In this document: positions 7,310 to 56,845 of the stretch, piece by piece
Layout of the letters: each line of letters opens with the position of its first letter
Numbering within the stretch: the stretch's first letter is position 1
Source: an uncultured candidatus Porisulfidus sp.
GTDB taxonomy: Bacteria > Pseudomonadota > Gammaproteobacteria > Poriferisulfidales > Poriferisulfidaceae
Direction of reading: 5' to 3'
DNA length: 64,000 bases
Assembly: GCA_965116025.1 (NCBI GenBank)
Contig: OZ220480.1
Coordinates: 1,376,001 to 1,440,000 of the forward strand
Notes under the pieces: model-generated
Database searches by the model: none
What the model was told of the DNA's origin: nothing
Seen by the model: the letters and a program-made list of their open reading frames with translations, nothing else
Program-made: the position numbers and the translations under genes

Positions 7310-7312
7310 GGC

Positions 7313-7624: not shown

Positions 7625-7627
7625 GGA

Positions 7628-7930: not shown

Positions 7931-7943
7931 GGCGCCTCCCCTG

Positions 7944-9472: not shown

Positions 9473-9473
9473 G

Positions 9474-11385: not shown

Positions 11386-11386
11386 A

Positions 11387-13039
11387 TCAGTCTCCGGCGG
11401 CGCGGCCCTTCAGCGCGAACAGCCCGCGCGGGCGCAGCTGAATGAACAGGATGATGAAGATCAGCACCAGAATCTTGCCGAGGATGGCGCCAGAGACGGG
11501 CTCCAGAAACTTGTTGACGATGCCGAGGCTGAAAGCGCCGACGATGGCGCCCCACAGGCTGCCCACGCCGCCGAACACGACGACCATGAAGCTGTCGACG
11601 ATGAAGTTCTGGCCGAGATTCGGGCTGACGTTGGAGATCTGGCTCAACGCCATGCCGGCGACTCCGGCGATGCCGGAGCCGAGCGCGAAGGTCAGGGCGT
11701 CGACTCGGCCAGCGCGAATGCCCATGGAGGCGGCCATCGAGCGGTTCTGGGTGACGGCGCGCATGTTCAGGCCGAAGCGCGAGTAGCGGATGAGCGCGGC
11801 CAGTGCCGCGACCACCGCCAGGCAAAACAGAATGATGCATAGGCGGTTGATCGTGATCGTCACGCCGGCGATCTCGATCGCGCCGGAGATCCACTCGGGA
11901 TTGGCGACCTCTCGATTGTTGGCGCCGAACAGAGAGCGCGCCAGCTGCTGCAGGATCAGGCTGACTCCCCAAGTGGCGAGCAAGGTCTCCAGCGGCCGCC
12001 CGTACAGGAAGCGGATCACTCCGCGCTCGATCAGCGCGCCCATCGCGGCGGCCACCAGAAACGCCACGGGTAGGGCGGCGAGCAGGTAGAGCCCGAACAG
12101 CTCCGGCGGGACGACGCTGCGGAAGATCTCCTGCACTAGGAACGTGGAGTAGGCGCCCAGCATGATCATCTCGCCGTGCGCCATGTTGATGACCCCCATC
12201 ACGCCGAAGGTGATGGCCAGCCCGATCGCGGCCAGCAGCAGCACCGACCCGAGGCTGACGCCGAACAGCAGGTTCTCGGCGATGCCGATCAGCCAGAGCT
12301 CGCGGTCGATGACCTCGACCGCGTCATGCAGGATCTCGCGGATCGCGGGGTCCGGCTCGGCTCCCTCCCGTAGACGGCGCTCCAGCAACGGGCGGAGCTC
12401 CGGTTCGGACGCCTTGGCCAGCCGGGTCGCCGCCGCCCGGCGCAGAACCGGATCGTTCGCTTCCAGCTCCAGCGCGGCGACGCCGATCTCGAGTCTGTCT
12501 CGAACGGTCTCGTCGGTTTCCTGATCGCGGGCCTGTTGGAACAGTTCCAGAGCCTGGGGTCCAGGGTTCTTGATCAGGTCGTTCGCGGCTTTGAGACGCC
12601 TCGTTGGCTCATCGCTGAATAGGGACAATCGCCCGGCGACGCGCCGGATCAATCGGCGCAGCCGGTTGTTGGCCTTGATCTTCCTCAGTTCGCGCGCGCT
12701 CGCGTCAGGCTCGGCGCGCCCGCTCGCCGCGTCCCGCACCGCGTATCGATCTCCGACGCGCTCCACGAGAACGATTCGGCCGTCCGAGCGAGCGCGCAAC
12801 CGGCCTTTGGATAACGTCTCCAGAGCCTCCAAGGCGCGCGGTCCACCCAGCGTTCCGAGACGCTCGACGGCTTCGGCCTTTTGCTGGAATTCTTTGGTGT
12901 CGAGCGCCTGCAGGACGACGCGGAGCTCAGCCTCGGTCGGCTCAGCCGCGGCTGGCATGACGGAGAGCGCCATCGCGGAAAGCGCGATGGCGCCGAGGAG
13001 TTTCCGTCCAGACGGGATTTCCGCCCTCAGATGGACCAT
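11387..13039 (-). CDS. urtB: Urea ABC transporter permease UrtB, long form with HEAT-like periplasmic domain
   Basis: GLAITFGVMGVINMAHGE, YGRPLETLLATWG, DSFMVVVFGGVG. Confidence 0.95.
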   Translation of the reverse strand: MVHLRAEIPSGRKLLGAIALSAMALSVMPAAAEPTEAELRVVLQALDTKEFQQKAEAVERLGTLGGPRALEALETLSKGRLRARSDGRIVLVERVGDRYAVRDAASGRAEPDASARELRKIKANNRLRRLIRRVAGRLSLFSDEPTRRLKAANDLIKNPGPQALELFQQARDQETDETVRDRLEIGVAALELEANDPVLRRAAATRLAKASEPELRPLLERRLREGAEPDPAIREILHDAVEVIDRELWLIGIAENLLFGVSLGSVLLLAAIGLAITFGVMGVINMAHGEMIMLGAYSTFLVQEIFRSVVPPELFGLYLLAALPVAFLVAAAMGALIERGVIRFLYGRPLETLLATWGVSLILQQLARSLFGANNREVANPEWISGAIEIAGVTITINRLCIILFCLAVVAALAALIRYSRFGLNMRAVTQNRSMAASMGIRAGRVDALTFALGSGIAGVAGMALSQISNVSPNLGQNFIVDSFMVVVFGGVGSLWGAIVGAFSLGIVNKFLEPVSGAILGKILVLIFIILFIQLRPRGLFALKGRAAGD

Positions 13040-13121
13040 GGCGTCGTTCGGTCCCGTTCTTCTTGGCGGAGTAGCCCGAAGCCGGACCCGCGGCTCGCGC
13101 CGCAGGTCCGGTCGGATAAAG

Positions 13122-14396
13122 TCAGAAGCGCGGCTTCTCGCAGTTTCCGCATACCCAGGGCCAGGTCCAGTCCGCGGTCAGCTTGGCGCTTTCCGGGATG
13201 TAGTCGGACCAGGCGTCGCCCGCGACGACCCCGTCCGTGGACCACACGACATCGAACTGCCCATCGTCCTGGATCTCGCCGATCAGCACGGGCTTGGACA
13301 GATGGTGGTTGGCGTTCATCACCGCCATGCCGCCGGTCAGATTGGGCGCGGTCTGTCCGTACATCGCCTGACGCACCGCGTCGATATCGGTCGTTCCGGC
13401 CTGCTCGACCGCCTGCACCCACATCTGGAAGCCGATGTAGTGGGCCTCCATCGGGTCGTTGAACACGCGGTTCTCGTCGCCGATGAACGCGTGCCACTTC
13501 TGGATGACATCGGAGTTGCGGTCGTCCTCGACGCTCATGAAGTAGTTCCACGCGGCCAGGTGCCCGACCAGCGGGCCGGTGTCGATGCCGGCGAGCTCCT
13601 CCTCGCCGACCGAGAAGGCCACCACCGGGATGTCCTCGGCCGCGACGCCCTGGTTCCCGAGCTCCTTGTAGAACGGCACGTTGGCGTCGCCATTGATGGT
13701 CGACACGACGGCCGTCTTCTTGCCCGCCGCCGCGAACTTCTTGATGTCCGACACGATCGTCTGCCAGTCGGAGTGCCCGAATGGCGTGTAGTTGATCATG
13801 ATGTCGCTCTCCGCGACGCCCCGGGCCTTGAGAAAGGACTCGAGAATCTTGTTGGTGGTGCGCGGGTAGACGTAGTCGGTACCGGCCAGGACCCATCGCT
13901 CGACGGATCCGCCTTCCTCGCTCATCAGATATTCCACGGCTGGAATCGCCTGCTGGTTCGGCGCGGCGCCGGTGTAGAAGATGTTGCGGGAGGACTCCTC
14001 GCCCTCATACTGGACCGGATAGAACAGCATGCCGTTGAGCTCCTCGAATACCGGAAGAACGGATTTTCGGGACACCGAGGTCCAGCAGCCGAACACGACG
14101 TCGACCTCGCGTCGCTCGATCAGTTCGCGCGCTTTCTCCGCGAACAGCGGCCAGTCCGACGCGGGGTCGACGACCACCGCCTCGAGCTCGCGGCCGAGCG
14201 CGCCGCCCTTGGCGTTCTGCTCGTGAATCAGAAACTCCATCACGTCCTTCAGCGCGGTTTCGCTGATGGCCATGGTTCCGGACAAGGAGTGCAGGACGCC
14301 GACCTTGATCGGCTCGTCGGCTCGGGCTCCCTCCAACGCCGCGAACGCGCCCGCGAGCAGGCACAGCGCGGCCATAAGATTGCGTACAGTTTTCAT
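13122..14396 (-). CDS. urtA: Urea ABC transporter substrate-binding protein UrtA
   Basis: Signal peptide, GVLHSLSGTMAISE, FGCWTSVSRK, YPVQYEG, TDYVYPRT. Confidence 0.96.
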   Translation of the reverse strand: MKTVRNLMAALCLLAGAFAALEGARADEPIKVGVLHSLSGTMAISETALKDVMEFLIHEQNAKGGALGRELEAVVVDPASDWPLFAEKARELIERREVDVVFGCWTSVSRKSVLPVFEELNGMLFYPVQYEGEESSRNIFYTGAAPNQQAIPAVEYLMSEEGGSVERWVLAGTDYVYPRTTNKILESFLKARGVAESDIMINYTPFGHSDWQTIVSDIKKFAAAGKKTAVVSTINGDANVPFYKELGNQGVAAEDIPVVAFSVGEEELAGIDTGPLVGHLAAWNYFMSVEDDRNSDVIQKWHAFIGDENRVFNDPMEAHYIGFQMWVQAVEQAGTTDIDAVRQAMYGQTAPNLTGGMAVMNANHHLSKPVLIGEIQDDGQFDVVWSTDGVVAGDAWSDYIPESAKLTADWTWPWVCGNCEKPRF

Positions 14397-14531: not shown

Positions 14532-14876
14532 TCAGCGCTCCGCGATCGGGGTCAGGACCTCGCGGAAGAACGGTGCCCAGGCCGCCACCAGCCACAGCGC
14601 GAAGAGCGTCTCGATCCCCAGCGCCCTGCGCCAGCGCGCCCGCGCTTCCGCCGTCGAGTCGGCGAGTCGGACCGATGACATGAGGATGTCGAACAGCAGG
14701 ACGAAGAGCGTCAGCGGCGCGGCCGCGGGCAGGATCAGGGTCCAGACCAAATCCCAGCCCGCCAGGCTCAGTGGCTCGCCTGGATCGGTCGCGAGCAGGG
14801 CGAGAGCGGCGGCCAGCGCCAGCAACGCCATGCGCAGGACGCCGAGCTCGGCGACGAGCGCGCGTGGCGGAATCAT
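14532..14876 (-). CDS. Small integral membrane protein of unknown function, translationally coupled to sat
   Basis: Three hydrophobic segments; start overlaps the sat stop (ATGA). Confidence 0.7.
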   Translation of the reverse strand: MIPPRALVAELGVLRMALLALAAALALLATDPGEPLSLAGWDLVWTLILPAAAPLTLFVLLFDILMSSVRLADSTAEARARWRRALGIETLFALWLVAAWAPFFREVLTPIAER

Positions 14877-16057
14877 GAGGACTGGTAGTGCTCCATCAGG
14901 ATGCGGGCGATTTCCGGTCGCGCGAACTCGGGGGGAAGGTCCTCTCCGTTAGACAGCATCTCCCGCACCCGGGTGCCGGACAACAGCACGAAATCCTCTT
15001 TCGCGTGGTCCGGCGCGTCGCGCATCATGACCACCTTGTCGAGCTTCTTGGAATAGGCGGTGTGGTCCGCGCGGAATATCTCGATGTCCAGCGCTTCCTT
15101 CGGAGCCTCCTCGTCGAAGATGGTCTGCGCGTCGAACGCTCCGTAGTAGTCGCCGACTCCGGCGTGGTCGCGCCCGACGATCAGGTGCGAGCAGCCCGCG
15201 TTCTGGCGAAAGATGGCGTGTAGCGCGGCCTCGCGCGGCCCGGCGTACAGCATGTCGAAGCCGTAGCCGGTGATCATCACCGTGTTGGGGGGAAAGTAGA
15301 GCTCGACCATCTTGCGGATTGCGGCGTCGCGAACGTGAGCGGGAATGTCGCCGGGCTTGAGACGCCCGAGCAGCATGTGGATCAGCACGCCGTCGGCGCC
15401 GACCGCCTCCCGGGCGATCTTGCACAGCTCCTCGTGCGCGCGATGCATCGGGTTGCGGGTCTGGAACGCCACCACGCGGTCCCAGCCGCGCTCCCGGATC
15501 TCGTCGCGAATCTGGACCGCGGTGCGGAAGGTGTCGGAGAACTCGTCCGGGAAGTAGCTATAGTCCAGGACCTCGATCGGTCCGGAAACCAGCGTTCGGC
15601 CATTGTCGAGAAAGGTCTTGACGCCGGGATGGTCGCGGTCCGCGGTTCGGAAGACCTGCCGGGCCAGATTCTCGAGATCGCGCTCGGACAAGGTCTCGAT
15701 GGCCTCGACCCGCTGGACGGCCAGCACGGGCTGTCCGTCACGGTTGCAATCGCGCAGGGCGACGCGCGACTCGCCCGCGATGGCGGAGGCGTCCTGGGTT
15801 TGGTTGAGGACCGGGACGGGCCAGAACAAGCCGGATTCGGCGCGCGTCTCGCGCCCGACGCGCAGGGCGTCCGCGGCGCCCATGTAGCCGTCCAGCGGCG
15901 TGAAGTATCCGCCAGCCAGCATCACGGCGTTGGAGACGGCGGCGGAGTTGAGCGTCAGGGAGGGCAGGGATTCGGCTTCCTCCCGCACCGCCGCGGCGCG
16001 TTCCGCGCCGTCGACGATGAGCGGGATCAGCCGGTCGCTGGCGTAGGGCTTGATCAT
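14873..16057 (-). CDS. sat: Sulfate adenylyltransferase (ATP sulfurylase), sulfur-oxidiser type
   Basis: AFQTRNPMHRAHE, MLYAGPREA, IVGRDHAGVG, LSGTRVREML, PPEFARPE. Confidence 0.97.
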   Translation of the reverse strand: MIKPYASDRLIPLIVDGAERAAAVREEAESLPSLTLNSAAVSNAVMLAGGYFTPLDGYMGAADALRVGRETRAESGLFWPVPVLNQTQDASAIAGESRVALRDCNRDGQPVLAVQRVEAIETLSERDLENLARQVFRTADRDHPGVKTFLDNGRTLVSGPIEVLDYSYFPDEFSDTFRTAVQIRDEIRERGWDRVVAFQTRNPMHRAHEELCKIAREAVGADGVLIHMLLGRLKPGDIPAHVRDAAIRKMVELYFPPNTVMITGYGFDMLYAGPREAALHAIFRQNAGCSHLIVGRDHAGVGDYYGAFDAQTIFDEEAPKEALDIEIFRADHTAYSKKLDKVVMMRDAPDHAKEDFVLLSGTRVREMLSNGEDLPPEFARPEIARILMEHYQSS

Positions 16058-16202
16058 GGCGTTCGTCCGTGAATGAGGAAGCCGTATTGTACTGAACGCG
16101 GGGCGTCGAGATTTGGATGCGCTCGCCTCGCGAGACGCGATCGCGTTGAGATTCTTGAGGAGCGCGTCTCCGTCGCGTCCAGAATCGCGACGCTCGGGAC
16201 GT

Positions 16203-17666
16203 CTACGGATCTGGAGAGCTCGATCCCGACCGGCCGTAGGCGTCCTCGAACCTGCTGATGTCGTCCTCGCCCAGATAGGAGCCCGATTGCACCTCGATCA
16301 GTTCCAGCGGCTCCTCCCCGGGGTTCTCTAGGCGATGACGCGCGCCGCGCGGAATGAACGTGGACTCGTTTTCCGAAAGCGTGAACGTCTCGTCTCCCCG
16401 AGTCACCCGCGCGACGCCGCGCACCACGACCCAGTGCTCCGCCCGGTGCCGATGCGCTTGCAGGGAAAGTCGCTGTCCCGGATTCACGATGATGTGCTTG
16501 ACCTTGAACCGGTCGCCCTCGTGCACCGAGTCGTAGTGTCCCCAAGGACGATAGACCTTGCGGTGGTGCAGGCATTCCTCGCGGTCCGCCCGTTTGAGCC
16601 GCTCGACCAGTCGCTTGGCGTCCTGCGCCGCGTCCTTGCCCGCGACGAGCAACGCGTCGGGCGTGTCGACGATGACGAGGTCCTCGACGCCGAGCGCGGT
16701 CACCAGTCGGGATTCGGAGCGCGCGTAGACGTCGCGGGCGTCGAGCAACGCCACGTCGCCTCGGGTCACGTTGCCGTTCTCGTCTCGCTCGTCGGGCCCG
16801 GATAGATCCGCCAGCGCGGTCCAGGAGCCCACGTCGGACCAGTCCGTCCCAAGCGGCGCCACGGCCACGTCCGCGGCATGCTCCATCACGGCGTAGTCCA
16901 CCGAGATGGAGGGGGAGCGGCCGAAGGATTCCGCGTCCAGCCGCGAAAACTCGAGGTCGGGCGCTTTCCGCTCATACGCTTCCCGGGCGGCTTCGAGAAC
17001 GCCTGGAGCGTGGCGCTCGAGCTCCGCCAGGTAGCGAGACGCCGCGAAGACGAACATGCCGCAGTTCCAGTAGCAGTCGCCCGCGTCAATGAGTCGCGCG
17101 GCCTCGTCGACGGCCGGTTTTTCCACGAAGCGCTCCACGATTCGGGCCTCTCCGCTCGCGTCCGTGGGAGATCCCGCTTGGATGTAGCCGTAGCCGGTCT
17201 CGGGGTGGTCGGGAGTGGCGCCGAAGGTCACGAGCCGGCCCCGCGTCGCTTCCCGAGCGGCCGCTTGAACCGCCCGCGCGAATTTTTCAGCATCCTGGAT
17301 GACGTGATCCGTGGGCATCACCAGCAGGAGGGGGTCGTCATCCCTGTCGTTTTGGGACAGGGCTTCCAGGGCCGCGCAGGCGATGGCGGGAGCCGTGTTG
17401 CGGGCGACCGGTTCCAGCAGGATGGCCGCGGGCGTGATCTCGACATCCCGGAGCTGCTCCGCCACCATGAAGCGATGCCGCTCGTTGCAGACCACGATAG
17501 GGCGCCGCGCGCCGTCGACCGCGTCGAGCCTCCGCGCCGTGTCCTGCAGCAGAGTGCGCTCGCCCGTCAGGGCGATGAGCTGCTTCGGGTAGGCTTCCCG
17601 GGACAGCGGCCAGAGCCGGCTGCCGGAGCCGCCTGACAGGATGACGGGATGCATGGGGTCGCTCAC
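16203..17666 (-). CDS. manC: Mannose-1-phosphate guanylyltransferase / mannose-6-phosphate isomerase
   Basis: LSGGSGSRLWPLSR...PKQ, FVEKP, WSDVGSW, cupin tail YRPWG...LSLQAHRHRAEHWVVV. Confidence 0.96.
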   Translation of the reverse strand: MSDPMHPVILSGGSGSRLWPLSREAYPKQLIALTGERTLLQDTARRLDAVDGARRPIVVCNERHRFMVAEQLRDVEITPAAILLEPVARNTAPAIACAALEALSQNDRDDDPLLLVMPTDHVIQDAEKFARAVQAAAREATRGRLVTFGATPDHPETGYGYIQAGSPTDASGEARIVERFVEKPAVDEAARLIDAGDCYWNCGMFVFAASRYLAELERHAPGVLEAAREAYERKAPDLEFSRLDAESFGRSPSISVDYAVMEHAADVAVAPLGTDWSDVGSWTALADLSGPDERDENGNVTRGDVALLDARDVYARSESRLVTALGVEDLVIVDTPDALLVAGKDAAQDAKRLVERLKRADREECLHHRKVYRPWGHYDSVHEGDRFKVKHIIVNPGQRLSLQAHRHRAEHWVVVRGVARVTRGDETFTLSENESTFIPRGARHRLENPGEEPLELIEVQSGSYLGEDDISRFEDAYGRSGSSSPDP

Positions 17667-17796
17667 GAAACTTCGGGTCGTCGAGACGGGTGACGGGCTA
17701 GTGGAGGTGACGCCATCCCCTTCACGTGGTGGCGCGTCGCCATTTCTTCCGGCGACTCATCCGTCCGCGAGATCCGGCGCTTTTCATCTTCCTTAT

Positions 17797-18471
17797 TCAT
17801 GGTTGGTATTCCTCCAGAATCTTTGGTAATTCTTCTATAGTCAAGGCGGAGCTTCTTGGTGGAGAGGGCCGCTCGAAAGATTTCAGACGATTAAGCCGTT
17901 TTCTGCGATTTTCCAGATAATATTGACCATCGACGATGACCACTAAAACGATTCCTTCGTCACAACAGAGCATGAATCGCCTCATCAATTCGACCATTTC
18001 CTTATACTGACTGTCCTGATTGCCACCACCTTCCTTTGTGTATTTGTGCATGGCATAAAAAGTTTTGGTCCCGGTCTTCCACCTGAAATCCAGTGACTTT
18101 CCAGGCAAGGTTTTTCCCTCATGCTCGGTTTCAAGATTCCCGTCGCTGGTGACCTTCATCGCTTTTGAGCCATGGGAAGGTAGTACCTCGAACTCTTTTA
18201 CATCGGGCAAGCCGCGAATCCACTCTCCGGCAACTTTTTGATGTAAGCCTGTGCGTCTTGGCTCTTTAGCGAAGTGCGCGGCGAACATTTTGTCTTCTTC
18301 GATTTTTCGCAAGACCACTTCTTCCTCGTAGCCAAACCGCATAGCGAAAGTCGCTACCCGAGCCAGCAATCGATCAGCCTTATCGCGGATCTCACCATGA
18401 ATATCCTCTTGCGACTGTTTCCACAGTTTTCGCTCAATCGCCTCGTAGTCTGGAGGTGGCCTATCCCACAT
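17797..18471 (-). CDS. Putative restriction endonuclease (PD-(D/E)xK-like), partner of the adjacent methyltransferase
   Basis: Overlaps the MTase 3' end, visibly lower GC, KSLDF...MHKYTKEGGGNQDSQ resembles a nuclease core; the function is inferred from context. Confidence 0.5.
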   Translation of the reverse strand: MWDRPPPDYEAIERKLWKQSQEDIHGEIRDKADRLLARVATFAMRFGYEEEVVLRKIEEDKMFAAHFAKEPRRTGLHQKVAGEWIRGLPDVKEFEVLPSHGSKAMKVTSDGNLETEHEGKTLPGKSLDFRWKTGTKTFYAMHKYTKEGGGNQDSQYKEMVELMRRFMLCCDEGIVLVVIVDGQYYLENRRKRLNRLKSFERPSPPRSSALTIEELPKILEEYQP

Positions 18472-19396
18472 GATGGATGATTCCTCGAGCCAGCCCCCAG
18501 TCGCAGCGCCTGCGATACTTGCCGTCCTTTCTTATGCCCTTGTAGCAGGTCATCAAGACATCGAACGTTTTTTCTCGAAACCGCGCGAGAAATCCGTTCC
18601 AGTCCGCGATTCTGATATCCGTGCCCACGGAAAGCTTCGTGATGTGACGGCCGGTGGATTTGACGGCGTAGTCCGCCAGCTCGTCGACCTCGCAAAAACG
18701 AATGGACGCCTCTTTCGTATTGTCAAGGGCGATCAAGCCGACATTCCCTCGCGGATCATTGAAGACGACCCTCGCTCCGGACTCCAGCGGCGTGGGCCTC
18801 AACGCCTTGATTTCGGACAGGAGCCCTATTCGGCAAGCTCCGGACCAGACATCAACGTCGTCCACCGGGCTGGGCGCGAACAGCGCCAAACCTACCGGAT
18901 GCTTCGTGTCGGTGAACATTTCCGAGGTGAGGGAGACGAAGGATTGAAGCCGATCCTGAAAAAGGTTGGCCGTGATGAACGACTCCGGCACGAGCGCGGC
19001 CACATATCCGCAGTGATCGAGGCATCTGCGGAGAGCGAACTTGTACAGATTGTCGTAAGGACACTCAGGGAAATCCAGGCCCCGAGCCGTGGCGCTGTTC
19101 TTCGCGAGCCACGGAGGGTTGGTCACGCATGTCTTGAAACCCTCAGGAAACTCCTTAAGTGTGTCTCTGCGCCTTACGTCGCCCGCGGCCGGGGCGATAT
19201 CGAAAGACGCGAAACGCGCGCACAGTCCCATGCTGGAAAGCGTCTCGATAAGACTGTTCGAGCCGGCGAACGGCTCCAGAATCTCGCTGTTCGGCAATCC
19301 CGCCCTTTCGGCCCATTCCTCGAACGGCGAATTTCTGAACGGGTTTCCCCGAGTGAAGTAGCGGCCGGATTCGCGTTTCTCTTTGGAGGGCGTCAC
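18461..19396 (-). CDS. Amino-DNA methyltransferase (gamma-class motif order X-I-IV)
   Basis: GRYFT (motif X), ILEPFAGS (motif I), VTNPPW (motif IV), F(x)DT (motif VIII-like). Confidence 0.75.
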   Translation of the reverse strand: MTPSKEKRESGRYFTRGNPFRNSPFEEWAERAGLPNSEILEPFAGSNSLIETLSSMGLCARFASFDIAPAAGDVRRRDTLKEFPEGFKTCVTNPPWLAKNSATARGLDFPECPYDNLYKFALRRCLDHCGYVAALVPESFITANLFQDRLQSFVSLTSEMFTDTKHPVGLALFAPSPVDDVDVWSGACRIGLLSEIKALRPTPLESGARVVFNDPRGNVGLIALDNTKEASIRFCEVDELADYAVKSTGRHITKLSVGTDIRIADWNGFLARFREKTFDVLMTCYKGIRKDGKYRRRCDWGLARGIIHHVG

Positions 19397-19893
19397 GTCA
19401 TTGGCCTCCCGCCAGCGAGACCCTCGCTCTCTATCGCGATCAGGTTTTCCATTCCGAATTTCGCGTCAATTTTCAAGTTGGGGAGCTCGCTTGGCTTTTC
19501 GCCTCCACCGGAGCGGGTTTCGCTCCTCTCGGCCTGCGCGTTGGACTATGCGGGTTGCCAGCAAGGTCGCTTTGGGCCGCGTTCGCGCCGGGTCTCGGTG
19601 GCCAGTTGGTCGTGCGCCAATCCATGAAGCGGGCGCGCGGCATGCTTGTGCGGAAGCGTTCGCTGGACATCTCGCGGATCATATCGCCTTATTTCTTGGG
19701 CCGCGTCACGAGAGGTGGCGCGGCTTGGAGATTTTACGCTATCAGATCTTTTCGCGGAGCGTCTGGTCAGCCGCGCTCCGGCCGATATGGATATAATTCC
19801 CAGAATCTCCAGTCCTTAGTGGGTTCCGCACCGCTCTCGAACGCTATCTGGAGACCTTGCTCGATCACTGAACTTCCGGGTTGACCTCTGAAT

Positions 19894-21039
19894 ATGCCGC
19901 GTTTCGCTTCCCGCGATGGCCGCGCCGCTTCGGAGGCGTCCGTCTCCGTCGTGGTGCCGACGTTTCGCGAGGCGGAGAACATCCCCGCGCTGGCCGAGCG
20001 CGTCGCCGCCACGCTGTCCGGCGCCGGGCTCGAGTGGGAACTGGTGCTGGTCGACGACGATTCGCGGGACGGGAGCGAGGCCGTGGTCGCGGAGCTGGCG
20101 CGGCGCATGCCGGCGCGCATGGAGGTGCGCGAGGACCCGCCCCGAGACCTTTCCTTGTCGGTGCTTCACGGAATTCGAATCAGCCGCTTTGATCGGGTGG
20201 TGGTGATGGACGCCGATCTGTCGCATCCGCCGGAGCGCGTGCCCGACTTGCTGCGCGCGCTGGACGGCGAGCGTGACATGGTCGTGGGCAGCCGCTACGC
20301 GCCGGGCGGACGCGTCGATGAGGACTGGGGGCTGTGGCGCTTCCTCAACTCTTGGGTCGCCACCCTGCTGGCCCGCCCGCTCGTCACCTGCTCGGATCCG
20401 ATGTCCGGGTTTTTCGCGCTGGACCGCCGCGCGCTTCCGGACCTCGAGTCCCTGCGCCCGACCGGCTACAAGATTGGCCTTGAACTCATGGTGCGCGGGC
20501 GGTTGCGGGTAGGAGAGGTTCCGATCGATTTCTCGGATCGGTTCCGGGGCGCGAGCAAGATGAACGCGCGCCAGCAGATCAACTATCTCCGTCACCTCAA
20601 GCGTTTGTACCTGCACCGCTTCGGCGATCTGGCGCGCGCGCTGAGTTTCGGCGTGGTCGGGGTCAGCGGCTTCGTCGTCGACCTCGCCTTCTATCTGGGC
20701 CTGCAGGCGCTGGGCGTCGAGCACCGCTTGGCGCGCTTCCTGTCGTTCTGGCCCGCGGTCAGCTGGAACTGGTGGCTCAACCGGCGCGTCACCTTCGACG
20801 ACCGCGTCCGGCAGGGCCCGGCGCGTCAGTGGGTCCGCTTCACGGTCGCGAGTCTGGTCGGCCTGGGGGTCAACGTTGGCGGCTATCTGCTTCTGACGAG
20901 TTTCGTGGCGGCGTTCGCCCGCAACCCGATACTCGCGTTCTTCCTCGGCGTCGCCTTGGGCGGTGGCGTCAACTTCCTGGTTTCCAATCTGTTCGTCTAT
21001 CGCCGCCGCGCCGCCACGTCGCCGCGTGAGGAGCGCTGA
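19894..21039 (+). CDS. Polyprenol-phosphate mannose synthase-like GT2 (DPM1-like) fused to a GtrA domain
   Basis: VVVPTFRE, VDDDSRDGS, VMDADLSHPPE, VGSRY, DPMSGFF, GYKIGLE, DRFRGASK; C-terminal GtrA pattern FGVVGVSGFVVD...NWWLNRRVTF. Confidence 0.9.
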   Translation: MPRFASRDGRAASEASVSVVVPTFREAENIPALAERVAATLSGAGLEWELVLVDDDSRDGSEAVVAELARRMPARMEVREDPPRDLSLSVLHGIRISRFDRVVVMDADLSHPPERVPDLLRALDGERDMVVGSRYAPGGRVDEDWGLWRFLNSWVATLLARPLVTCSDPMSGFFALDRRALPDLESLRPTGYKIGLELMVRGRLRVGEVPIDFSDRFRGASKMNARQQINYLRHLKRLYLHRFGDLARALSFGVVGVSGFVVDLAFYLGLQALGVEHRLARFLSFWPAVSWNWWLNRRVTFDDRVRQGPARQWVRFTVASLVGLGVNVGGYLLLTSFVAAFARNPILAFFLGVALGGGVNFLVSNLFVYRRRAATSPREER

Positions 21040-21046
21040 GGGTTCC

Positions 21047-23803
21047 ATGGGCAAGGCGAGCCGGGAAAAAGCGGAGCGCAGAGTCCGGGAGACGGCCGGG
21101 GAAGACGCCGCCGGGCGCGCGGATCCAGCTCTCGTCGGGAGCGCGCCCGAGGGGCTGGCCTTGATGTTCACGAGGAAGGGCCCGCCGAGCGACTTTCCCG
21201 GCCACGCGGGTCTCGGCGTCCTGCTGCTCGTCGCGCTGGTGATCGTTAGTTACTACCCGGCACTCACGGGCGCATTCATTTGGGACGACACTATTTTCGC
21301 CTCCATGCGTCAGACCCGGGAATGGTCCGGAATCCTGGATTTCTGGTTCCGTCCGGGACTACTCGAGCTGGAGGGGCATTACTGGCCGGTCGTCTACACG
21401 ACTTTCTGGCTGGAGCACAAGCTATGGGGATTCGAGCCCGTGGGCTACCACGTGGTCAACACCCTGCTGCAAGCGCTCAACACCCTGCTGGTGTGGCGGC
21501 TGATGCTACGCCTTTCCGTGCCTGGAGCCTGGCTGATCGCCGCCGTGTTCGCCGTCCATCCGTTGCACGTCGAGTCGGTGGCTTGGATCATCGAGCGCAA
21601 GGACCTGCTTTCGGGGGCGCTGTATCTCGGTTCCGCGCTGCTCTGGTTGCGCTTTTTGGAGACGGCTCACTGGAAGCCCTACTCGCTGTCGATGATTTTG
21701 TTCGTCCTGAGCCTGCTGAGCAAGACCGTCACGGTGACCTTGCCAGCGGCGTTGCTGGTCCTGTGCTGGTGGAAGCGCGGGCGAATCGGTTGGGCGGACC
21801 TCAAGCCGTTGCTACCGTTCTTCGCGGTAGGGTTCGCGATCACCATCAGCGCCATCACGTACCAGGCGACCCGGGAGCCGCTGGAGCTCGACTACTCGCT
21901 CATCGAGCGAGCCCAGATCGCGGCGGGCGCCCTGTGGTTCTACTTGAGCAAGTTGCTGTGGCCGGTTGACCTGATCGTGATCTACCCGTTCTGGGAGGTT
22001 GGCGCCGGGAATTGGATGGCCTGGGGCTACGTGGCGGCGGCCCTCGCCTTGGCGACGGCTCTTTGGCTCGCGCGCGGACGGATCGGGCGCGGGCCGATGG
22101 CCGCCGCGGCGTTCTTCGTGGTGACGCTGTCGCCGGTGCTCGGCTTCATCGACTACGGCTACATGCAGTTCTCCTTCGTCGCCGACCGCTTTCAGTATCT
22201 GGCGGGCATCGGCGTGATGGCCGCGCTCATCGGCACCGGGACGAGCTGGGCCTCCCGATTGCCACCGGTCGGGCGAAGAGGCGTCTTGGGCATCGCGTTG
22301 ATCGGGGTGGGCGCGCTGGCGACGCTGTCTTGGCAGCAATCGCGACTGTACCGCGACGAGATCGTCTTCTTCAGCTATATCGTCGAGCATAATCCGAAGG
22401 CTCGGGGGGGGCATCACAACCTCGCGGAGGCGCTGCGGGAGGAGGGGCGCGCGGACGAGGCGTTCGCCATGGCGCGCGCCGCCATGGCCAAGAAGCCAGA
22501 CTTTCCGCACGCTTACAACAACTACGGCCTGATGCTCCAGGAGCGCGGCGAGTTCGACGAGGCGGAGAAAGTCTTTCAGGATGGCTTGAAGGTCGAGCCG
22601 GACGACGCGGGGCTCGCGATGCGACTCGCCGAACTGAGCCGGACCCGGGAACGCTATGAGGAGGCGTTGCGCTGGCTCAATCTCGTTATCGAGCGCCAGC
22701 CCGACGCCTCGCTAGCCTATGTGGAGAAGGGAGATGTCTTGTTCCATCTGGAGCGCTATGAGGAAGCCATCGAGACTCTGGAGAAGGCCCTGCTTCTGGA
22801 CTCGGACTTGCGAGGGGAGGCGATGCTGCACAACTTCATCGGCGCGGCGGCGCGGAATCTGAGTCGCTTCGAGAAGGCGGAGAAGCATTACCGGGTCGCC
22901 TTGCGACTGGACCCGAAACAGCCCCAGGCGCACGCCAACCTCGTCGAGTTGCTGGTCGAGATGGAGCGTCCTGAGGAGGCGAGGCGCCACCGCGGAGAAG
23001 CACTCGAGACGTACGCGGGCGACCCCGCTGGAATCCAGCGCGTCCTTAATCTGCTCCGGGAGCGCCAGCGATACGAGGAGGAGCTCGCGTGGCACGACGA
23101 GATCGTCCGATTCCTCCCTGGGGACGCGTGGGGGCACGTGGGGAGAGGGGAGGTCTTGCTGCATCTGGAGCGTCCCGAGGAAGCGGTCGAGTCTCTGGAA
23201 CGGGCGGTCGCCTTGGCGCCCGACGCGTCGACTGCGTCCTCGGCGCGCATGCTGCTGGCGCGAGTGGCGCGAACGCAGGGTCTGCGGGAGCGGGAGGAGG
23301 AGCTCTACCGGCTCATCCTGAAGGATGAGCCCAAGCATTTGGGCGCGCTCGAAGGGTTCGCCCGGGCGCGGATTGAGCGGGGACGTCCCACGGAGGCGGT
23401 TGAGTTCCTGGAGCGGATGATCGCCCTGGACCCCGATGGGCCGACCGCGTCCCTGGCGCGCATGCTACTGGCGAAAACGGCGCGGGCGCGGGGCTTGCTG
23501 GGACGCGAGACGGAATTCTACCTGCGCGTCTTGAAAGACGATCCGGAGCACCTTGGCGCGCTCGAGCGGCTCGCTCGGGCGCGGCTTGAGCAAGGGCGCC
23601 CTGAGGAGGCTCTGGAGCTCTACCGGAAGTTCGCGGACCTCGTGCCGAACCAAGAGGGCGCGTATGGAAACATCGGCCTTTTGCTGTACCGCATGGGCCG
23701 CTTCGAAGAGGCGCGCGAGGCGGTCGACCGCGCGCTCGCCTTGAATCCGGACCACCGCCAGGCGCGGCGCGTCCTCGAACAAATCCGCACGGAATCGCGG
23801 TAG
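21047..23803 (+). CDS. TMTC-like GT-C glycosyltransferase with a long C-terminal TPR array
   Basis: FIWDD first-loop diacid, YWPV, YHVVN, FAVHPLHVESVAWIIERKDLL, LLSK, VADRFQYL, followed by many TPR motifs. Confidence 0.8.
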   Translation: MGKASREKAERRVRETAGEDAAGRADPALVGSAPEGLALMFTRKGPPSDFPGHAGLGVLLLVALVIVSYYPALTGAFIWDDTIFASMRQTREWSGILDFWFRPGLLELEGHYWPVVYTTFWLEHKLWGFEPVGYHVVNTLLQALNTLLVWRLMLRLSVPGAWLIAAVFAVHPLHVESVAWIIERKDLLSGALYLGSALLWLRFLETAHWKPYSLSMILFVLSLLSKTVTVTLPAALLVLCWWKRGRIGWADLKPLLPFFAVGFAITISAITYQATREPLELDYSLIERAQIAAGALWFYLSKLLWPVDLIVIYPFWEVGAGNWMAWGYVAAALALATALWLARGRIGRGPMAAAAFFVVTLSPVLGFIDYGYMQFSFVADRFQYLAGIGVMAALIGTGTSWASRLPPVGRRGVLGIALIGVGALATLSWQQSRLYRDEIVFFSYIVEHNPKARGGHHNLAEALREEGRADEAFAMARAAMAKKPDFPHAYNNYGLMLQERGEFDEAEKVFQDGLKVEPDDAGLAMRLAELSRTRERYEEALRWLNLVIERQPDASLAYVEKGDVLFHLERYEEAIETLEKALLLDSDLRGEAMLHNFIGAAARNLSRFEKAEKHYRVALRLDPKQPQAHANLVELLVEMERPEEARRHRGEALETYAGDPAGIQRVLNLLRERQRYEEELAWHDEIVRFLPGDAWGHVGRGEVLLHLERPEEAVESLERAVALAPDASTASSARMLLARVARTQGLREREEELYRLILKDEPKHLGALEGFARARIERGRPTEAVEFLERMIALDPDGPTASLARMLLAKTARARGLLGRETEFYLRVLKDDPEHLGALERLARARLEQGRPEEALELYRKFADLVPNQEGAYGNIGLLLYRMGRFEEAREAVDRALALNPDHRQARRVLEQIRTESR

Positions 23804-23809
23804 CCGCGA

Positions 23810-25471
23810 ATGGGCAGAAAGTCGAGACGGAAACGATCCGCGAGGCGGAGTCCCGGAGTTCCGGCGCCGCCGCCCCCGCCTCCGCGGGAGCGCTCCTTCG
23901 CGCTCGCCGCCTGGCTGGGAGCAAGGGAGCCCGAGGGGCCTCCGTGGAGGTGGTTTCCTTGGATCTTGGCGCTGGCGTTCGTGGCGCGGGCGGCGGTCGC
24001 CCTGTCTGGGGATTTCGTGCTGCATCCCGACGAGATCATGCAGTATCTGGAGTCGGCGCACCGCTTGGTCTTTGGCAACGGCGTCGTGTTCTGGGAGTTC
24101 CTCTACGGCGCGCGCTTCTGGCTGGTGCCCGGCTTCGTCGCCGGAATTCTCGCCCTGTTCGACGCCGTGGGACTCGGCGAGCCAGTCTGGTACGTCGGCG
24201 GGGTGAAACTGGCGTTCTGCGCGGTCTCCCTGCTGATTCCGGCGGGGATGTACTTTTTCGCGCGGCGCCAGTTCGGCGAGACCGCGGGCAGGATCGCGCT
24301 GGTGACCGGCGCGTTCTGGTACGAGCTGGTCGGTTTCGCGCACAAGCCGATGACCGAATTCGTTTCGACCGCCTTGCTGCTGGTTTTGCTCGCGCTCTGC
24401 GCGCGCCCGTCCCTGGACCGGACGCGGACGATTTGGGCGGTGGCGGCGCTGGCGACGCTCATGGCGGCCGTTCGCTTGCAGTACGCGCCGCTCGCGCTGC
24501 CGCTCCTCGGCGTGGCGTTCTTGCGGACCCGGCGCAAGGCGGCGCTGGTGTCGGCGACGGGCTTGTGCTTGCTCGCGGTCGGCATCCTCGACGGGGCCAG
24601 TTGGGGTGGGTCTCTGTTTCACTCCTACGTCACCAATATCGAGTTCAACCTGTTTCTCGGCGACTACCGCGCTGGGGAGAGTCCGGGCTGGCAGTACCTG
24701 CTGTGGCTCGTTCTCGCCAGTTCTGGCCTTGGCGCGCTGTGCCTCGCCGCGGCGGCGCCGTCGCCGCGGCGCTACGGCATTCTTCTCGCGCTGATCGCGA
24801 TAGCCTTGCTAGCTCATTCCCTGCAATCGCATAAGGAATATCGATTCATCTTCGCGGTCATTCCTCTGTGGTTGCTGATCGGCTCGGATATGGTGGCGCG
24901 GATCATGGCGCGGACGGACGGAGCGTGGCGGGTCCCGGGTCTGGCCGCCGCCGCGTTCGCGGTCCTCTCCGTGGCCGGAATTCTGAACGCGCTGCCTTCC
25001 CAAGCCCAGGTCTACCACGCGTATTCGAGAGGGACCGGGTTCGTCCGGTTCCTGAGTGAGCAGGACCCGGCCTTCGCCGCCTACCGTTACCTCGCCCGGG
25101 CGCCGGACGTGCAGGCGGTGCTGCATACCGACCGGCATCACCATAACCTTCCAGGCTACTATTATCTGCACCGGAAAGTTCCGTTCTACGACATTCTGAC
25201 GGGGTCGCTCGTCGCCGGCGACGGCGAGACGCTTCGGGCGTCCGTCAGCCATATCGTCTCCATGGAGCCCGGACTTCAGGTCCAGGGCTATCGGTTGGAC
25301 CGGGCGTTTGGCGACCTTCGGATTCTCCGGCGCGAGGCGGACGAGCCCGAGATCCGCCGATGGGAGCGCTACGCGCCCGTCATGGTGAGCGTGGAGGCGA
25401 ATGTCGTGAGACAGTTCAATCCCGCCGCTCCTCTTCCACCGCCGCGCTGGGGCATTCGGTTCCAAGACTAG
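23810..25471 (+). CDS. GT22 (PIG-B/ALG9-like) mannosyltransferase
   Basis: HPDEIMQYLESAHRLVFG...WEF...R and HKEYRFIF, both hallmarks of the PIG-B/ALG9 family; multi-pass membrane protein. Confidence 0.8.
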   Translation: MGRKSRRKRSARRSPGVPAPPPPPPRERSFALAAWLGAREPEGPPWRWFPWILALAFVARAAVALSGDFVLHPDEIMQYLESAHRLVFGNGVVFWEFLYGARFWLVPGFVAGILALFDAVGLGEPVWYVGGVKLAFCAVSLLIPAGMYFFARRQFGETAGRIALVTGAFWYELVGFAHKPMTEFVSTALLLVLLALCARPSLDRTRTIWAVAALATLMAAVRLQYAPLALPLLGVAFLRTRRKAALVSATGLCLLAVGILDGASWGGSLFHSYVTNIEFNLFLGDYRAGESPGWQYLLWLVLASSGLGALCLAAAAPSPRRYGILLALIAIALLAHSLQSHKEYRFIFAVIPLWLLIGSDMVARIMARTDGAWRVPGLAAAAFAVLSVAGILNALPSQAQVYHAYSRGTGFVRFLSEQDPAFAAYRYLARAPDVQAVLHTDRHHHNLPGYYYLHRKVPFYDILTGSLVAGDGETLRASVSHIVSMEPGLQVQGYRLDRAFGDLRILRREADEPEIRRWERYAPVMVSVEANVVRQFNPAAPLPPPRWGIRFQD

Positions 25472-25544
25472 AGGGCGCGTCGTTTTTGAAATCCGCGGGC
25501 CCCGCCCCCATTTCTCTAGGGAGAGATAGACCTTCCCTGATGGC

Positions 25545-28107
25545 ATGAGATTGGACAAGCTAACCCAGCCGTTTCAGCAGGCGTTGATGGAGGCGCGGTC
25601 GCTGGCGGTCGCCCGGGACTGCCCGGAAATCGATCCCGCGCACTTGGCGCTGGCTCTGCTCGACCTTCCGGACACCGCGGTCGCCTCGTTGTTGCGCGAG
25701 GCCGGGGCGGATATGGACCGCCTGCGCGGGCTTTTGGGCCATCGGATCGAGTCGCTGCCACGGGTGACTGGCGAGAAGGGCGACGTTGGGATTTCCGCCG
25801 ACTTGCGGCGGCTGCTTGACGCTTGCGATGGTCTCGCGCGGGAGCGTGGCGATCAGTACGTCGCGTCCGAGCTATTTCCGCTCGCCGCGCTACGGGACCG
25901 GGGAGAGGTTGGGAAGTCGCTGCGCGAATCCGGCGCGGACGCCGAGCGCTTGACGAAGGCGATTGAGGGGTTGCGCCAGGGCGAGCCCGTCACGGACCCG
26001 AACGCCGAGCAGCATCGCCAGGCGCTGGAGAAATACACCGACGACCTGACCCGGCGGGCGGAGCGAGGCAAGATCGACCCCATCATCGGTCGCGACGAGG
26101 AAATCCGGCGCGCCATCCAGATTCTGCAGCGGCGCACCAAGAACAACCCGGTGCTGATCGGAGAGGCCGGAGTGGGCAAGACCGCGATCGTCGAGGGTCT
26201 GGCGCTGCGCATCGTCAATGGCGAGGTGCCGGAGAGCTTGCGGGGCCGGCGGGTGCTGGCTCTGGACATGGCGGCGCTGATCGCGGGAGCCAAGTTCCGC
26301 GGGGAGTTCGAGGAGCGTCTCAAGGCGGTGCTCAAGGAGCTGGCGCGGCAAGAGGGCGAGTCGGTCCTGTTCATCGACGAGCTGCATACTCTGGTCGGCG
26401 CCGGGCGCTCGGAGGGGTCCATGGACGCCGGCAACATGCTCAAGCCGGCGCTGGCGCGCGGCGAGTTGCACTGCATCGGCGCCACTACCCTGGACGAGTA
26501 CCGCGAGAATCTCGAGAAGGACGCGGCTTTGGAGCGCCGCTTCCAGCGGATCCTGGTCGACGAGCCGAGCGTGGAGGACACCGTCGCGATCCTGCGCGGG
26601 ATCAAGGAGCGCTACGAGGTCCACCATGGCGTCGAGATCACGGACCCGGCGCTGGTCGCGGCCGCCACCCTGTCGGCGCGCTACCTGCCGGACCGCCGTC
26701 TGCCGGACAAGGCGATCGACTTGGTCGACGAGGCTGCCTCCCGCATTCGCATGGAGGTGGAATCGATGCCGGAGGAGATGGATCGCCTGGATCGGCGAAT
26801 GATCCAGCTCAAGATCGAGCGGCAGGCCCTGCGCAAGGAAAGCGACCCGGCATCCCGCGAGCGGCTGAAAACGCTGGAGGAGGAACTGGATCGTTTGGAA
26901 CGGGAGTACGCCGAGCTCGAGGAGGTCTGGAAGGCCGAGAAGTCGGCGGTCAGCGACACCGCCCGGGTGAAGAAGGAGTTGGACCAGGCGCGGCTGGATA
27001 TGGATCGGGCCCGCCGCGAGAACGATCTGGAGCGCGCCGCCGAGCTGCAGCACGGAATTATCCCAGACCTCGAGCGCCAGCTGGAGCGACGCTCGGACGA
27101 CGCGGAGAAGCCTCAGGCGACCTTGTTCCGGGACATCGTGACCGAGGAGGAGATAGCCGAGGTGGTGGCGCGCGCGACTGGCATTCCGGTGTCCCGGATG
27201 CTGGAGGGAGAGAAAGAGCGGCTGCTGCGCATGGAGGAGGCCCTGCACCGGCGCGTGGTCGGACAGGATGAGGCCGTGACCGCGGTCTGTCACGCGATCC
27301 GCCGCTCCCGCTCCGGGCTGACTGACCCGGGCCGCCCGATCGGGTCTTTCCTGTTCCTGGGGCCGACCGGAGTCGGCAAGACCGAATTGTGCAAGGCGCT
27401 GGCGGAGTTCCTGTTCGATCAGGAATCGTCGATGGTGCGCGTGGACATGTCGGAATTCATGGAAAAGCACTCCGTGGCGCGGCTGATTGGCGCGCCACCA
27501 GGCTACGTGGGCTACGAGGAGGGCGGCCGGCTGACCGAGGTGGTGCGGCGACGCCCGTTCGCGGTGATTCTGCTCGACGAGATCGAGAAGGCGCACCCGG
27601 ACGTGTTCAACATTCTGCTGCAGGTGCTCGACGATGGCCGCCTGACGGATGGTCATGGGCGCACCGTCAGTTTCGCGAACGCGGTGGTGGTGATGACTTC
27701 CAACCTCGGCAGCGACACGATCCGAAGCATGGCGCGCGAGCCGCACGAGAAGGTGAAGAGCGCGTTGCGGGAACAGCTGACGGAGAGCTTTCGGCCGGAG
27801 TTCATCAACCGAATTGACGAGGTGCTGGTGTTCCGCGCGTTGCGGCGCGAGCAGATTCACGCGATCGTTCGCATCCAGGTCGAACGGCTGAGGGAGCGGC
27901 TCGCCGAGCGCAAGTTGAAGTTGGAAATGTCGGACGAGGCGATCGACTTCATCGGCAACGCCGGCTACGATCCAGAGTACGGAGCCCGACCTTTGCGCCG
28001 GGCGTTGCGAGATGATCTGGAGAACCCGCTGGCCCAGGCGTTGCTGGAGGGGGATTTCCCGCCTGGACGTACGGTTCGGGTGGACCGCGGGGACGCGGGG
28101 CTTCGCC

Positions 28108-28121
<14 letters not shown>
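25545..28121 (+). CDS. clpB: ATP-dependent chaperone ClpB
   Basis: Two AAA+ modules ([16 protein letters not shown]), middle coiled-coil domain, [13 protein letters not shown]. Confidence 0.98.
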
Positions 28122-29823
<1,702 letters not shown>

Positions 29824-29939
29824 GGTCGACGACGCTTGGCGCGCCCATCTTACAAAAACCGTGGGCATCGCCAGAATTTTGGCTTCATTCCGGCCCCGCT
29901 CGGCCGTCGCGTTGAAAGGCTTTGGCGATATCGCGTTTC

Positions 29940-29948
29940 TGGTAAAAT
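29940..29948 (+). promoter_or_regulatory. Candidate extended -10 promoter of the autotransporter
   Basis: TGGTAAAAT (TGn + TAAAAT) about 40 nt upstream of ATG 29991. Confidence 0.4.
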
Positions 29949-29990
29949 CCGCCTCATTGCTCACCGCCACAAATTTCCATGAGGGCCACC

Positions 29991-33553: not shown

Positions 33554-33565
33554 TCGGCTTCTGAT

Positions 33566-33594
33566 CGCGGCCCCGGCGGCGAGCCGGGGCCGCG
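33566..33594 (+). terminator. GC-rich hairpin after the autotransporter stop
   Basis: CGCGGCCCCGGC-ggcga-GCCGGGGCCGCG, perfect 12-bp stem; no clear U tract. Confidence 0.5.
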
Positions 33595-33731
33595 GCGAGT
33601 CAGAATTGACGGCTCAGGCTTTCCTATTTCGCGATCCGTCTCCAAAGGCCGAGAGTTCGGTAAAAAAGCCTTGACTCCGAGATTGAGGGATTATATTCAG
33701 TACCGGTCCAGTAGGGTCAGAACATCTCGGA

Positions 33732-56004: not shown

Positions 56005-56007
56005 CCG

Positions 56008-56838: not shown

Positions 56839-56845
56839 AGGATGT

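Follow-up and report, generated by a model that had tools for sequence, protein, structure and literature searches.

A stretch of 64,000 nucleotides (hereafter, the window) from the genome of an uncultured candidatus Porisulfidus sp. (contig OZ220480.1, positions 1,376,001 to 1,440,000) carries an operon of three genes that encode a putative polyprenyl-phosphate mannose synthase, a GT-C glycosyltransferase with a long C-terminal array of tetratricopeptide repeats (TPR GT-C), and a glycosyltransferase of family GT22. Together with ManC, whose gene lies upstream, these enzymes probably form, as we hold with moderate confidence, a horizontally spread, polyprenyl-phosphate-mannose-dependent glycosylation module acting at the outer face of the cytoplasmic membrane. 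This reading is carried by the identities, folds and catalytic motifs of the enzymes, by the linkage of their genes and by their spread across phyla. The underlying logic, extracytoplasmic glycosylation that depends on a polyprenyl-phosphate sugar, is already known; new are the enzyme set and its cross-phylum spread. Candidatus Porisulfidus is a known sponge symbiont, according to the accessible part of PMC12988363.

An earlier note on this DNA had described the locus as a complete, eukaryote-like route of protein mannosylation. Its four gene assignments (ManC, a DPM1-type GT2 fused to GtrA, a GT-C with TPR, and a GT22) are upheld by Pfam and NCBIfam, and all of the motifs it named (WDD, HPDE, WE, HKEYRF) are found on direct reading. 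The three operon genes are indeed co-oriented and closely packed, with gaps of 7 nt between the synthase and TPR GT-C genes and 6 nt between the TPR GT-C and GT22 genes. An alternative, longer reading frame for the TPR GT-C, with a GTG start at 20963, would overlap the synthase gene.

Predicted synthesis of the lipid-linked donor

The first enzyme of the operon combines a Glycos_transf_2 domain (PF00535, E 7.3e-25) with a GtrA_DPMS_TM domain (PF04138, E 2.4e-20). Its best match in the PDB is the dolichyl-phosphate mannose (Dol-P-Man) synthase, or DPMS, of Pyrococcus furiosus (5MLZ, E 7.8e-55), and residues 15-365 (of 381) align colinearly with residues 23-368 of the 374-residue archaeal chain. 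The two proteins have an MDADL..HPPE block in common, in which MDADL, the DxD element of the GT-A domain, falls on MDADL, and the C-terminal four-helix membrane domain lies within the same colinear alignment. The enzyme therefore has the two-part architecture of GT2 plus four-helix GtrA/DPMS domain that is known from the Pyrococcus structures (5MLZ, 5MM0, 5MM1). The earlier note had assigned the GtrA part a flipping function of its own; since the alignment with 5MLZ covers these helices, they are the normal membrane domain of the DPMS type and not an added flippase. A difference from the archaeal protein is that the enzyme here is bacterial and, instead of dolichyl phosphate, presumably uses undecaprenyl phosphate or a different polyprenyl phosphate. 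As judged from the sequence, the assignment as a polyprenyl-phosphate mannose synthase of the Pyrococcus DPMS type, which would catalyse the donor step, is well supported.

ManC is a bifunctional mannose-1-phosphate guanylyltransferase/mannose-6-phosphate isomerase (TIGR01479, E 1.6e-198, 660 bits against a cut-off of 373) with the Pfam domains NTP_transferase, MannoseP_isomer and ManC beta-helix. In the window, its gene is divergent from the operon, as had been noted earlier, yet it is no close neighbour: 2,227 nt and two minus-strand open reading frames (ORFs) separate the two. The arrangement is tighter in some relatives. In a sample of 16 genomes of the genus, the window's own included, manC lies 10 nt upstream of the synthase gene in G010, in the same orientation; in G012 the two genes are divergent and 131 nt apart, and G008 has a five-gene run of manC, a PMT_2-type GT-C, GT22, the synthase and the TPR GT-C. 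The proposal of a DPM1-type donor synthesis is thus well supported by the full-length colinearity with 5MLZ and by these short distances.

Mannose as the transferred sugar is inferred from the DPMS match, the adjacency of manC and the GT22 partner. It is improbable that the lipid carries another sugar, such as glucose or an amino sugar, the likeness to DPMS then reflecting family and not specificity. GT2 enzymes of similar fold do use varied sugars; among NCBIfam models, those for ArnC, PgfS, AglJ and a halophile hexose transferase match the synthase weakly, and no curated equivalog model claims it. Moreover, manC is nearly universal in the genus, being found in 14 of the 16 genomes, including six of the seven that lack the module, so that its presence by itself says little. 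Against another sugar stand the distance to the second-best PDB match (ArnC, E 8.5e-14), which is about 135 bits weaker than that to DPMS, the repeated placement of manC beside the synthase gene, and the family of the partner GT22, in which the enzymes of known structure, ALG9 and ALG12, take their mannose from Dol-P-Man (PMC13503287, as far as its available text goes).

A bacterial relative of ALG9 and ALG12

The GT22 enzyme matches Glyco_transf_22 (PF03901) over the entire model (1-414 of 414) with E 2e-29 and 103.5 bits against a cut-off of 23.8. It contains the motifs H72-P-D74-E75, W95-E96 and H341-K-E-Y-R-F346. In an alignment of 41 homologues, H72, D74 and E75 are invariant (41/41), as are Y344 and R345, and H341 and K342 are nearly so. 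A predicted model of the protein (pLDDT 74.9, pTM 0.80) was compared with solved structures by Foldseek, the best match being chicken ALG12 (9s6t, E 2.4e-8, TMt 0.67), followed by human ALG9 (E 4e-7) and, at a greater distance, ArnT (E 6e-5). Identity in the Foldseek alignments with ALG9 and ALG12 is only 17-18%, so that the gene is not a recent acquisition from a host. At the sequence level, a family profile was needed to reach ALG12 in the PDB (E 0.0049, with HKEYRF falling on HKELRF) and, weakly, ALG9 over the HPDE..WEY block; the single sequence retrieved nothing relevant there.

In the accessible part of PMC13503287, the catalytic bases of ALG9 (D82) and ALG12 (E35) are assigned to lumenal loop 1, where they lie on its first helix. 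In our alignment, D74 falls on an alanine of the ALG9 entry (chain position 88). This position is taken to be the D82A site, which, assuming an offset of six residues in the construct, would put D74 at the position of the ALG9 catalytic base. The likeness to ALG9 and ALG12 (9s6s, 9s6u and 9s6t; PMC13503287, seen in part) thus extends from the Pfam family and the best fold matches to the HKE-x-RF motif, an acidic residue in the first lumenal loop and a C-terminal extracytoplasmic domain. There are two differences: the acceptor here cannot be Dol-PP-GlcNAc2Man(n), and the bacterial GT22 genes are often present in several copies and beside TPR GT-Cs. Membership in the GT22 family of ALG9, ALG12 and PIG-B is well supported by Pfam, fold and motifs, in agreement with what had been proposed for this gene.

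A GT-C enzyme with a TPR array

The N-terminal domain of the second enzyme has a GT-C class A fold, for which oligosaccharyltransferase (OST), the protein O-mannosyltransferases (PMT) and ArnT tie as fold matches. The earlier note had considered that the GT-Cs might group with lipid A-modifying, ArnT-like families; the GT22 fold is nearer to ALG12 and ALG9 than to ArnT, and for the TPR GT-C ArnT is one of the three tied matches. Scanned alone, the N-terminal half matches PMT_2 with 26.1 bits, exactly at the Pfam cut-off, and no NCBIfam model matches the GT-C domain of any of three TPR GT-C paralogues at E <= 0.1. A profile of the GT-C retrieved from the PDB sequences TPR proteins and weak bestrophin matches only. 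From the ESM Atlas, only bacterial clusters that are unnamed or of the TPR/PMT_2 kind were obtained. In an alignment of 46 N-terminal GT-C domains from fetched loci (mean column identity 60%), D80 and D81 are invariant in 46/46 sequences; further invariant columns are H111-Y-W-P114, H171-P172, H174, E176, K185-D186, K226, D380-R381, Q383 and Y384.

The C-terminal half matches TPR_2 (E 1.3e-44) and many other TPR models of Pfam, as well as OGT and consensus TPR proteins in the PDB. It follows the last membrane helix, which is where the aligned STT3, PMT and ArnT chains have their C-terminal domains, lumenal or periplasmic, and in the predicted topology the array would sit in the periplasm.

Two known systems have this architecture. 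Animal TMTC1-4, which are protein O-mannosyltransferases for cadherins, likewise consist of an N-terminal GT-C with a strictly conserved DD pair in the first extracytoplasmic loop and a long C-terminal TPR array (PMC7801869, available part), and they too occur as several paralogues per genome. In bacteria, the GT-C TfpW of Pseudomonas aeruginosa requires a DDx motif that lies in its periplasmic loop 1, ends in a TPR domain on the periplasmic side, and transfers D-arabinofuranose from a polyprenyl-phosphate monosaccharide onto pilin (bioRxiv 10.1101/2020.04.19.049825, in the portion available). The likeness to TfpW is one of architecture; tfpW directly follows its substrate gene pilA, whereas no pilin gene adjoins the TPR GT-C of the window, the neighbours of which are the synthase and GT22 genes and then clpB.

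The window genome (2.02 Mb) contains three TPR GT-C paralogues, one synthase, one GT22 and, elsewhere, one PMT_2-type GT-C. Compared with the window copy, the other two TPR GT-Cs show 78% and 50% identity in the catalytic halves and only 45% and 32% in the TPR halves. Such faster divergence of the TPR halves is as expected for domains that select acceptors.

Each of the three paralogues has aminoacyl-tRNA synthetase genes no more than about 5 kb away: proS (window 28108-30210), thrS and pheS (L085:7416-11474), and aspS, serS and leuS (L086:1462-5349 and 10097-13954). In a small genome dense in housekeeping genes, such proximity may be a coincidence, or the synthetase genes may be a favoured insertion neighbourhood. 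About 200 nt from the second paralogue (L085:5011-7149), there is an IS1595-family transposase gene (L085:3863-4795, i.e., G000:C1:1443863-1444795), which fits mobility of these genes. The PMT_2-type enzyme, the fourth GT-C of the genome, has 586 aa and no TPR (L087:6249-8006, i.e., G000:C1:815249-817006); it matches the archaeal Agl23 model weakly (33 bits against a cut-off of 126) and is encoded between ubiE and an unknown gene, just after an XerC/D-type integrase gene.

Linkage of the genes

Conservation of the neighbourhood was followed at two levels. Within the genus, the synthase is found in nine of the 16 genomes, the TPR GT-C in seven and GT22 in five. Every genome that has either GT-C also has the synthase, and the seven genomes without the synthase lack both GT-Cs. 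In all of the genus genomes that have both genes (7/7), the TPR GT-C directly follows the synthase.

Beyond the genus, species-representative genomes were scanned for GT22, and the best 80 of 315 confirmed stretches yielded 78 distinct loci. Within 8 kb of GT22, a TPR GT-C gene is present in 42 of these 78 loci, in 27 of them adjacent and on the same strand. A close orthologue of the synthase is found at this distance in 15 loci, a GtrA-domain gene in 17, a PMT_2-type GT-C without TPR in 18 and, in other lineages, a manC gene in six. All three genes occur together in 13/78 loci, which belong to several phyla, and the combination is hence less singular than it had appeared from the window. At 26 loci, GT22 has no partner within 8 kb. 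For five of these, the whole genomes were searched; each contains a full-length synthase homologue (30-47% identity), and in 4/5 TPR GT-Cs lie beside it.

That the three genes are neighbours by chance and have no joint function can hardly be maintained. GT22 and the TPR GT-C are, it is true, each found alone in some genomes, but the reading is contradicted by the linkage counts given above, namely the adjacency of synthase and TPR GT-C in 7/7 genus genomes, the TPR GT-C near GT22 in 42/78 loci and the complete trio in 13, and also by the gaps of 6-7 nt on one strand in the window.

Spread of GT22 across phyla

Relatives of the GT22 enzyme at 50-65% identity are present in metagenome-assembled genomes (MAGs) of at least 11 phyla. 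At E <= 0.001, 1,078 of 8,000 scored candidate proteins are homologues, and in a library clustered at 50% identity the number of GT22 clusters is 314 with a limit of E <= 1e-30 and 1,350 with one of E <= 1e-10. By record title, the 78 loci belong to Latescibacterota, Acidobacteriota, Spirochaetia, Binatia, Thermodesulfobacteriota/Dadabacteria, Nitrospirales, Gemmatimonadota, Dehalococcoidia, Synechococcus, Rhodothermaceae, and alpha- and gammaproteobacteria, including Candidatus Poriferihabitaceae and Candidatus Porisulfidus. In the phylum of the window, PF03901 is above its cut-off in 10/401 sampled genomes, with three strong matches, and in 0/14 control genomes.

With lineage labels set by hand from the record titles, the median identity of GT22 proteins is 57.8% between labels (6,600 ordered pairs) and 64.4% within a label (1,232 ordered pairs), and for 29 of 89 sequences the nearest neighbour bears another label. 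A quick maximum-likelihood tree of 94 rows has 19 label changes, the minimum being 10; well-supported branches force at least five changes for Latescibacterota and three each for Nitrospirota and Binatota. Mis-binning of some short MAG contigs is possible, but several of the discordant rows are chromosome-level records. The pattern is read as repeated inter-phylum transfer combined with local duplication. The high identity across lineages, together with the recurrence of the same partners, is a sign of strong selection and of gene exchange, probably inside a single type of community.

Several loci contain more than one GT22 gene. An alphaproteobacterial locus (L038, 7839-15044) has four tandem paralogues on one strand, and there are two copies in several loci of Spirochaetia, Nitrospirales and Latescibacterota. 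Tandem copies suggest stepwise, linkage-specific additions of mannose.

Proposed mechanism and the nature of the acceptor

In the mechanism that we propose, ManC would make GDP-mannose, and the GT2/four-helix synthase would load mannose onto polyprenyl phosphate at the cytoplasmic face of the membrane. The lipid-linked mannose would then reach the periplasmic face and would serve separate GT-C enzymes there as a donor. The TPR GT-C would catalyse transfer via its WDD loop, with the periplasmic TPR array most likely selecting protein acceptors for O-mannosylation, and GT22 would attach mannose to an acceptor that already bears mannose, which is the reaction of all GT22 enzymes known so far. The actinobacterial Ppm1/Pmt system follows the same logic of a polyprenyl-phosphate sugar and an extracytoplasmic transfer by a GT-C. 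So do Gtr-type systems, in which a cytoplasmic GT2 makes a polyprenyl-phosphate monosaccharide that crosses the membrane and is used outside by a GT-C (PMC11127046, PMC8035078, both in their available parts). As in Gtr-type systems, a GT2, a GtrA-type element and a GT-C are encoded together here; in contrast to them, the synthase itself contains the GtrA-like helices, the GT-Cs belong to the GT22 and TPR kinds, and there is neither a prophage nor an O-antigen context within the window.

A protein acceptor for the TPR GT-C is plausible by analogy with TMTC and TfpW, in view of the diverging TPR halves of the paralogues and of the surroundings of the operon, where a Pfam scan of the window detects no polysaccharide, lipopolysaccharide (LPS) or O-antigen genes.

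Besides the near-universality of manC mentioned above, a number of observations weigh against the favoured reading, first of all as concerns TMTC. DUF1736, the Pfam model of the TMTC loop between TM7 and TM8, does not match residues 1-458 at E <= 10, only PMT_2 being returned. The invariant columns of the TPR GT-C were compared by eye, without alignment, with the motif table (Table 4) in the accessible part of PMC7801869, and only three of the seven TMTC motifs are clearly matched: M1 (DD), M3 (RxD, here R184-x-D186) and M7 (D/ERxxY, here D380-R-x-x-Y384). The metal-binding Glu of KE(T/Q)xxT is replaced by Ser/Thr (K226-S-x-x-x-T231), GHYWP resembles SHKSYRP loosely, and no DW or PxxP motif was seen in the invariant columns. 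Of the TMTC-like character ascribed to the enzyme earlier, the DD loop and the TPR architecture therefore stand, while membership in the family is not supported, given the missing DUF1736 match and the tie between OST, PMT and ArnT. The acceptor domains of animal O-mannosylation, Cadherin (PF00028) and TIG (PF01833), have no match in the window genome. TPR arrays, moreover, also scaffold polysaccharide export.

The genes are also separable, which weighs in the same direction. The TPR GT-C occurs without GT22 in three genomes of the genus (G002, G005 and G012), and GT22 with the synthase occurs without a TPR GT-C match in another (G015) and in one further genome (G434). Since the two GT-Cs occur apart, a fixed order in which one initiates and the other extends is not required, and the complete initiate-then-extend route of the earlier note is not obligatory. 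Finally, in the literature searched, no published study of these bacterial families was found; the TMTC-like work found is eukaryotic only, and in this literature the bacterial families have no tested enzyme function.

The main rival explanation retains the donor route and assigns the enzymes to glycan or lipid acceptors, such as mannan, lipoglycan, LPS core, O-antigen or exopolysaccharide, with the TPR array as a scaffold, in the manner of mycobacterial lipomannan synthesis or Gtr-type O-antigen modification. It has this rank because the GT-C fold ties with ArnT and because the known GT22 enzymes act on lipid-linked glycans; we regard it as a possibility to be taken seriously, if on the unlikely side. 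All characterised GT22 enzymes extend lipid-linked glycans, not proteins (PMC13503287, in the part available), which speaks for this rival and against the favoured reading alike, and three-component glycan-modifying systems composed of a polyprenyl-phosphate GT2, a GtrA-type protein and a GT-C are reportedly common in bacteria (PMC11127046 and PMC8035078, seen in part). Tandem arrays with as many as four GT22 paralogues have the look of a stepwise assembly of glycans, and the genomes with GT22 and no TPR GT-C (G015, G434) are consistent with glycan acceptors as well. The housekeeping surroundings of the operon, free of polysaccharide, LPS and O-antigen genes in the window, speak against such acceptors, as do the failure of the GT-C domain to match any NCBIfam model at E <= 0.1 and the much faster divergence of the TPR parts than of the catalytic parts among the paralogues. 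A further argument comes from a Dehalococcoidia record (L036) that carries both GT22 and a TPR GT-C. Dehalococcoidia are not known to possess LPS, and this record argues against a role specific to lipid A or LPS, not against other glycans.

With protein acceptors as the preferred reading, a candidate substrate had been seen in a supposedly Thr/Ser-rich autotransporter nearby. Its gene (30149-33553) is located 4.7 kb downstream of the operon, behind clpB and proS. The Ser+Thr content of the protein is only 15%. The family is expanded in the window genome: the passenger (aa 1-880) has 32 matches in the 2.02 Mb, of which 18, the query included, span from residue 16 or earlier to 880 at 53-100% identity, and the partial matches pair into about seven more loci. 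Besides the window copy, the family occupies about 25 further places on G000:C1. In nine other genomes of the genus, the passenger finds only two scraps (E about 1e-4), and it finds nothing in the five of these that carry the module. As the passenger family is missing from 5/5 other module-bearing relatives, the autotransporter was rejected as a conserved acceptor; it could nevertheless be modified in the window strain.

A bolder extension of the model appears doubtful to us. According to it, the genes would form a mobile inter-phylum mannosylation toolkit specific to microbial communities of animals, of the sponge type, in which one lipid-mannose synthase feeds a set of TPR-guided GT-Cs and ALG9/ALG12-like enzymes; eukaryote-like oligomannose on symbiont surface proteins would be read by the host as self or non-food, and the toolkit would have passed between unrelated symbionts living in one host because it secures residence there. 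If this were true, it would bear on host recognition through lectins or on the evasion of phagocytosis.

What the module means depends on its acceptors. If these are surface proteins, it would represent a new bacterial route of protein O-mannosylation outside Actinobacteria and a testable candidate for the display of host-like glycans by a symbiont. With glycan acceptors, it would be the bacterial equivalent of a pathway that assembles oligomannose step by step. In either case, bacterial relatives of the ALG9/ALG12 and TMTC type are available here in a compact, apparently intact and expressible operon of a 2.0-Mb genome, a small system in which the recognition specificity of GT22 and TPR GT-C enzymes can be approached.

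Genomic setting

The coordinates of the module and of the genes next to it are collected in Table 1.

Table 1. Features of the putative mannosylation locus (positions in the window)
Feature	Position	Strand	Remarks
Putative polyprenyl-phosphate mannose synthase gene (GT2+GtrA)	19894-21039	+	381 aa
TPR GT-C gene	21047-23803	+	918 aa, ATG start at 21047
GT-C class A membrane domain of TPR GT-C	21047-22360	+	W79-D80-D81, first extracytoplasmic loop
C-terminal TPR array of TPR GT-C, about 480 aa	22361-23803	+	TPR models; periplasmic side predicted
GT22 gene	23810-25471	+	553 aa, C-terminal soluble domain
manC	16203-17666	-	TIGR01479
Inserted lower-GC ORF pair	17797-18471 and 18461-19396	-	between manC and the operon, outside the pathway

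The two ORFs between manC and the operon lie in a stretch with a GC content of 0.574, compared with 0.646-0.677 in its flanks. The 224-aa product gives a match to Tsp45I below the threshold (E 0.0023, 18 bits against a cut-off of 25), and the 311-aa product contains, on direct reading, a TNPPW motif of the methyltransferase type and has no Pfam family at E <= 0.1. Judging from these features, the two are probably a horizontally acquired restriction-modification pair.

An Rfam search of positions 15000-34000 gave no match, and a scan of 17600-25700 for promoters and terminators gave nothing exceeding the shuffled expectation. Among sequencing runs searched with positions 19800-25500, no RNA data set containing the operon was listed. 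Elsewhere in the window, a stand-alone TPR protein of 606 aa is encoded at 53579-55396 (+), beside two large ORFs (410 and 586 aa; 55330-58355, minus strand) that have no Pfam matches at E <= 1e-6. The operon is otherwise surrounded by housekeeping genes, including urease, ATP sulfurylase, clpB, proS and pyruvate dehydrogenase genes. The urease cluster (ureC, ureD, ureF and ureG-type genes; 3804-14396) is an ordinary one, accompanied by an ABC transporter of the urea/branched-chain type with a periplasmic binding protein, and it is followed by the ATP sulfurylase gene at 14873-16057.

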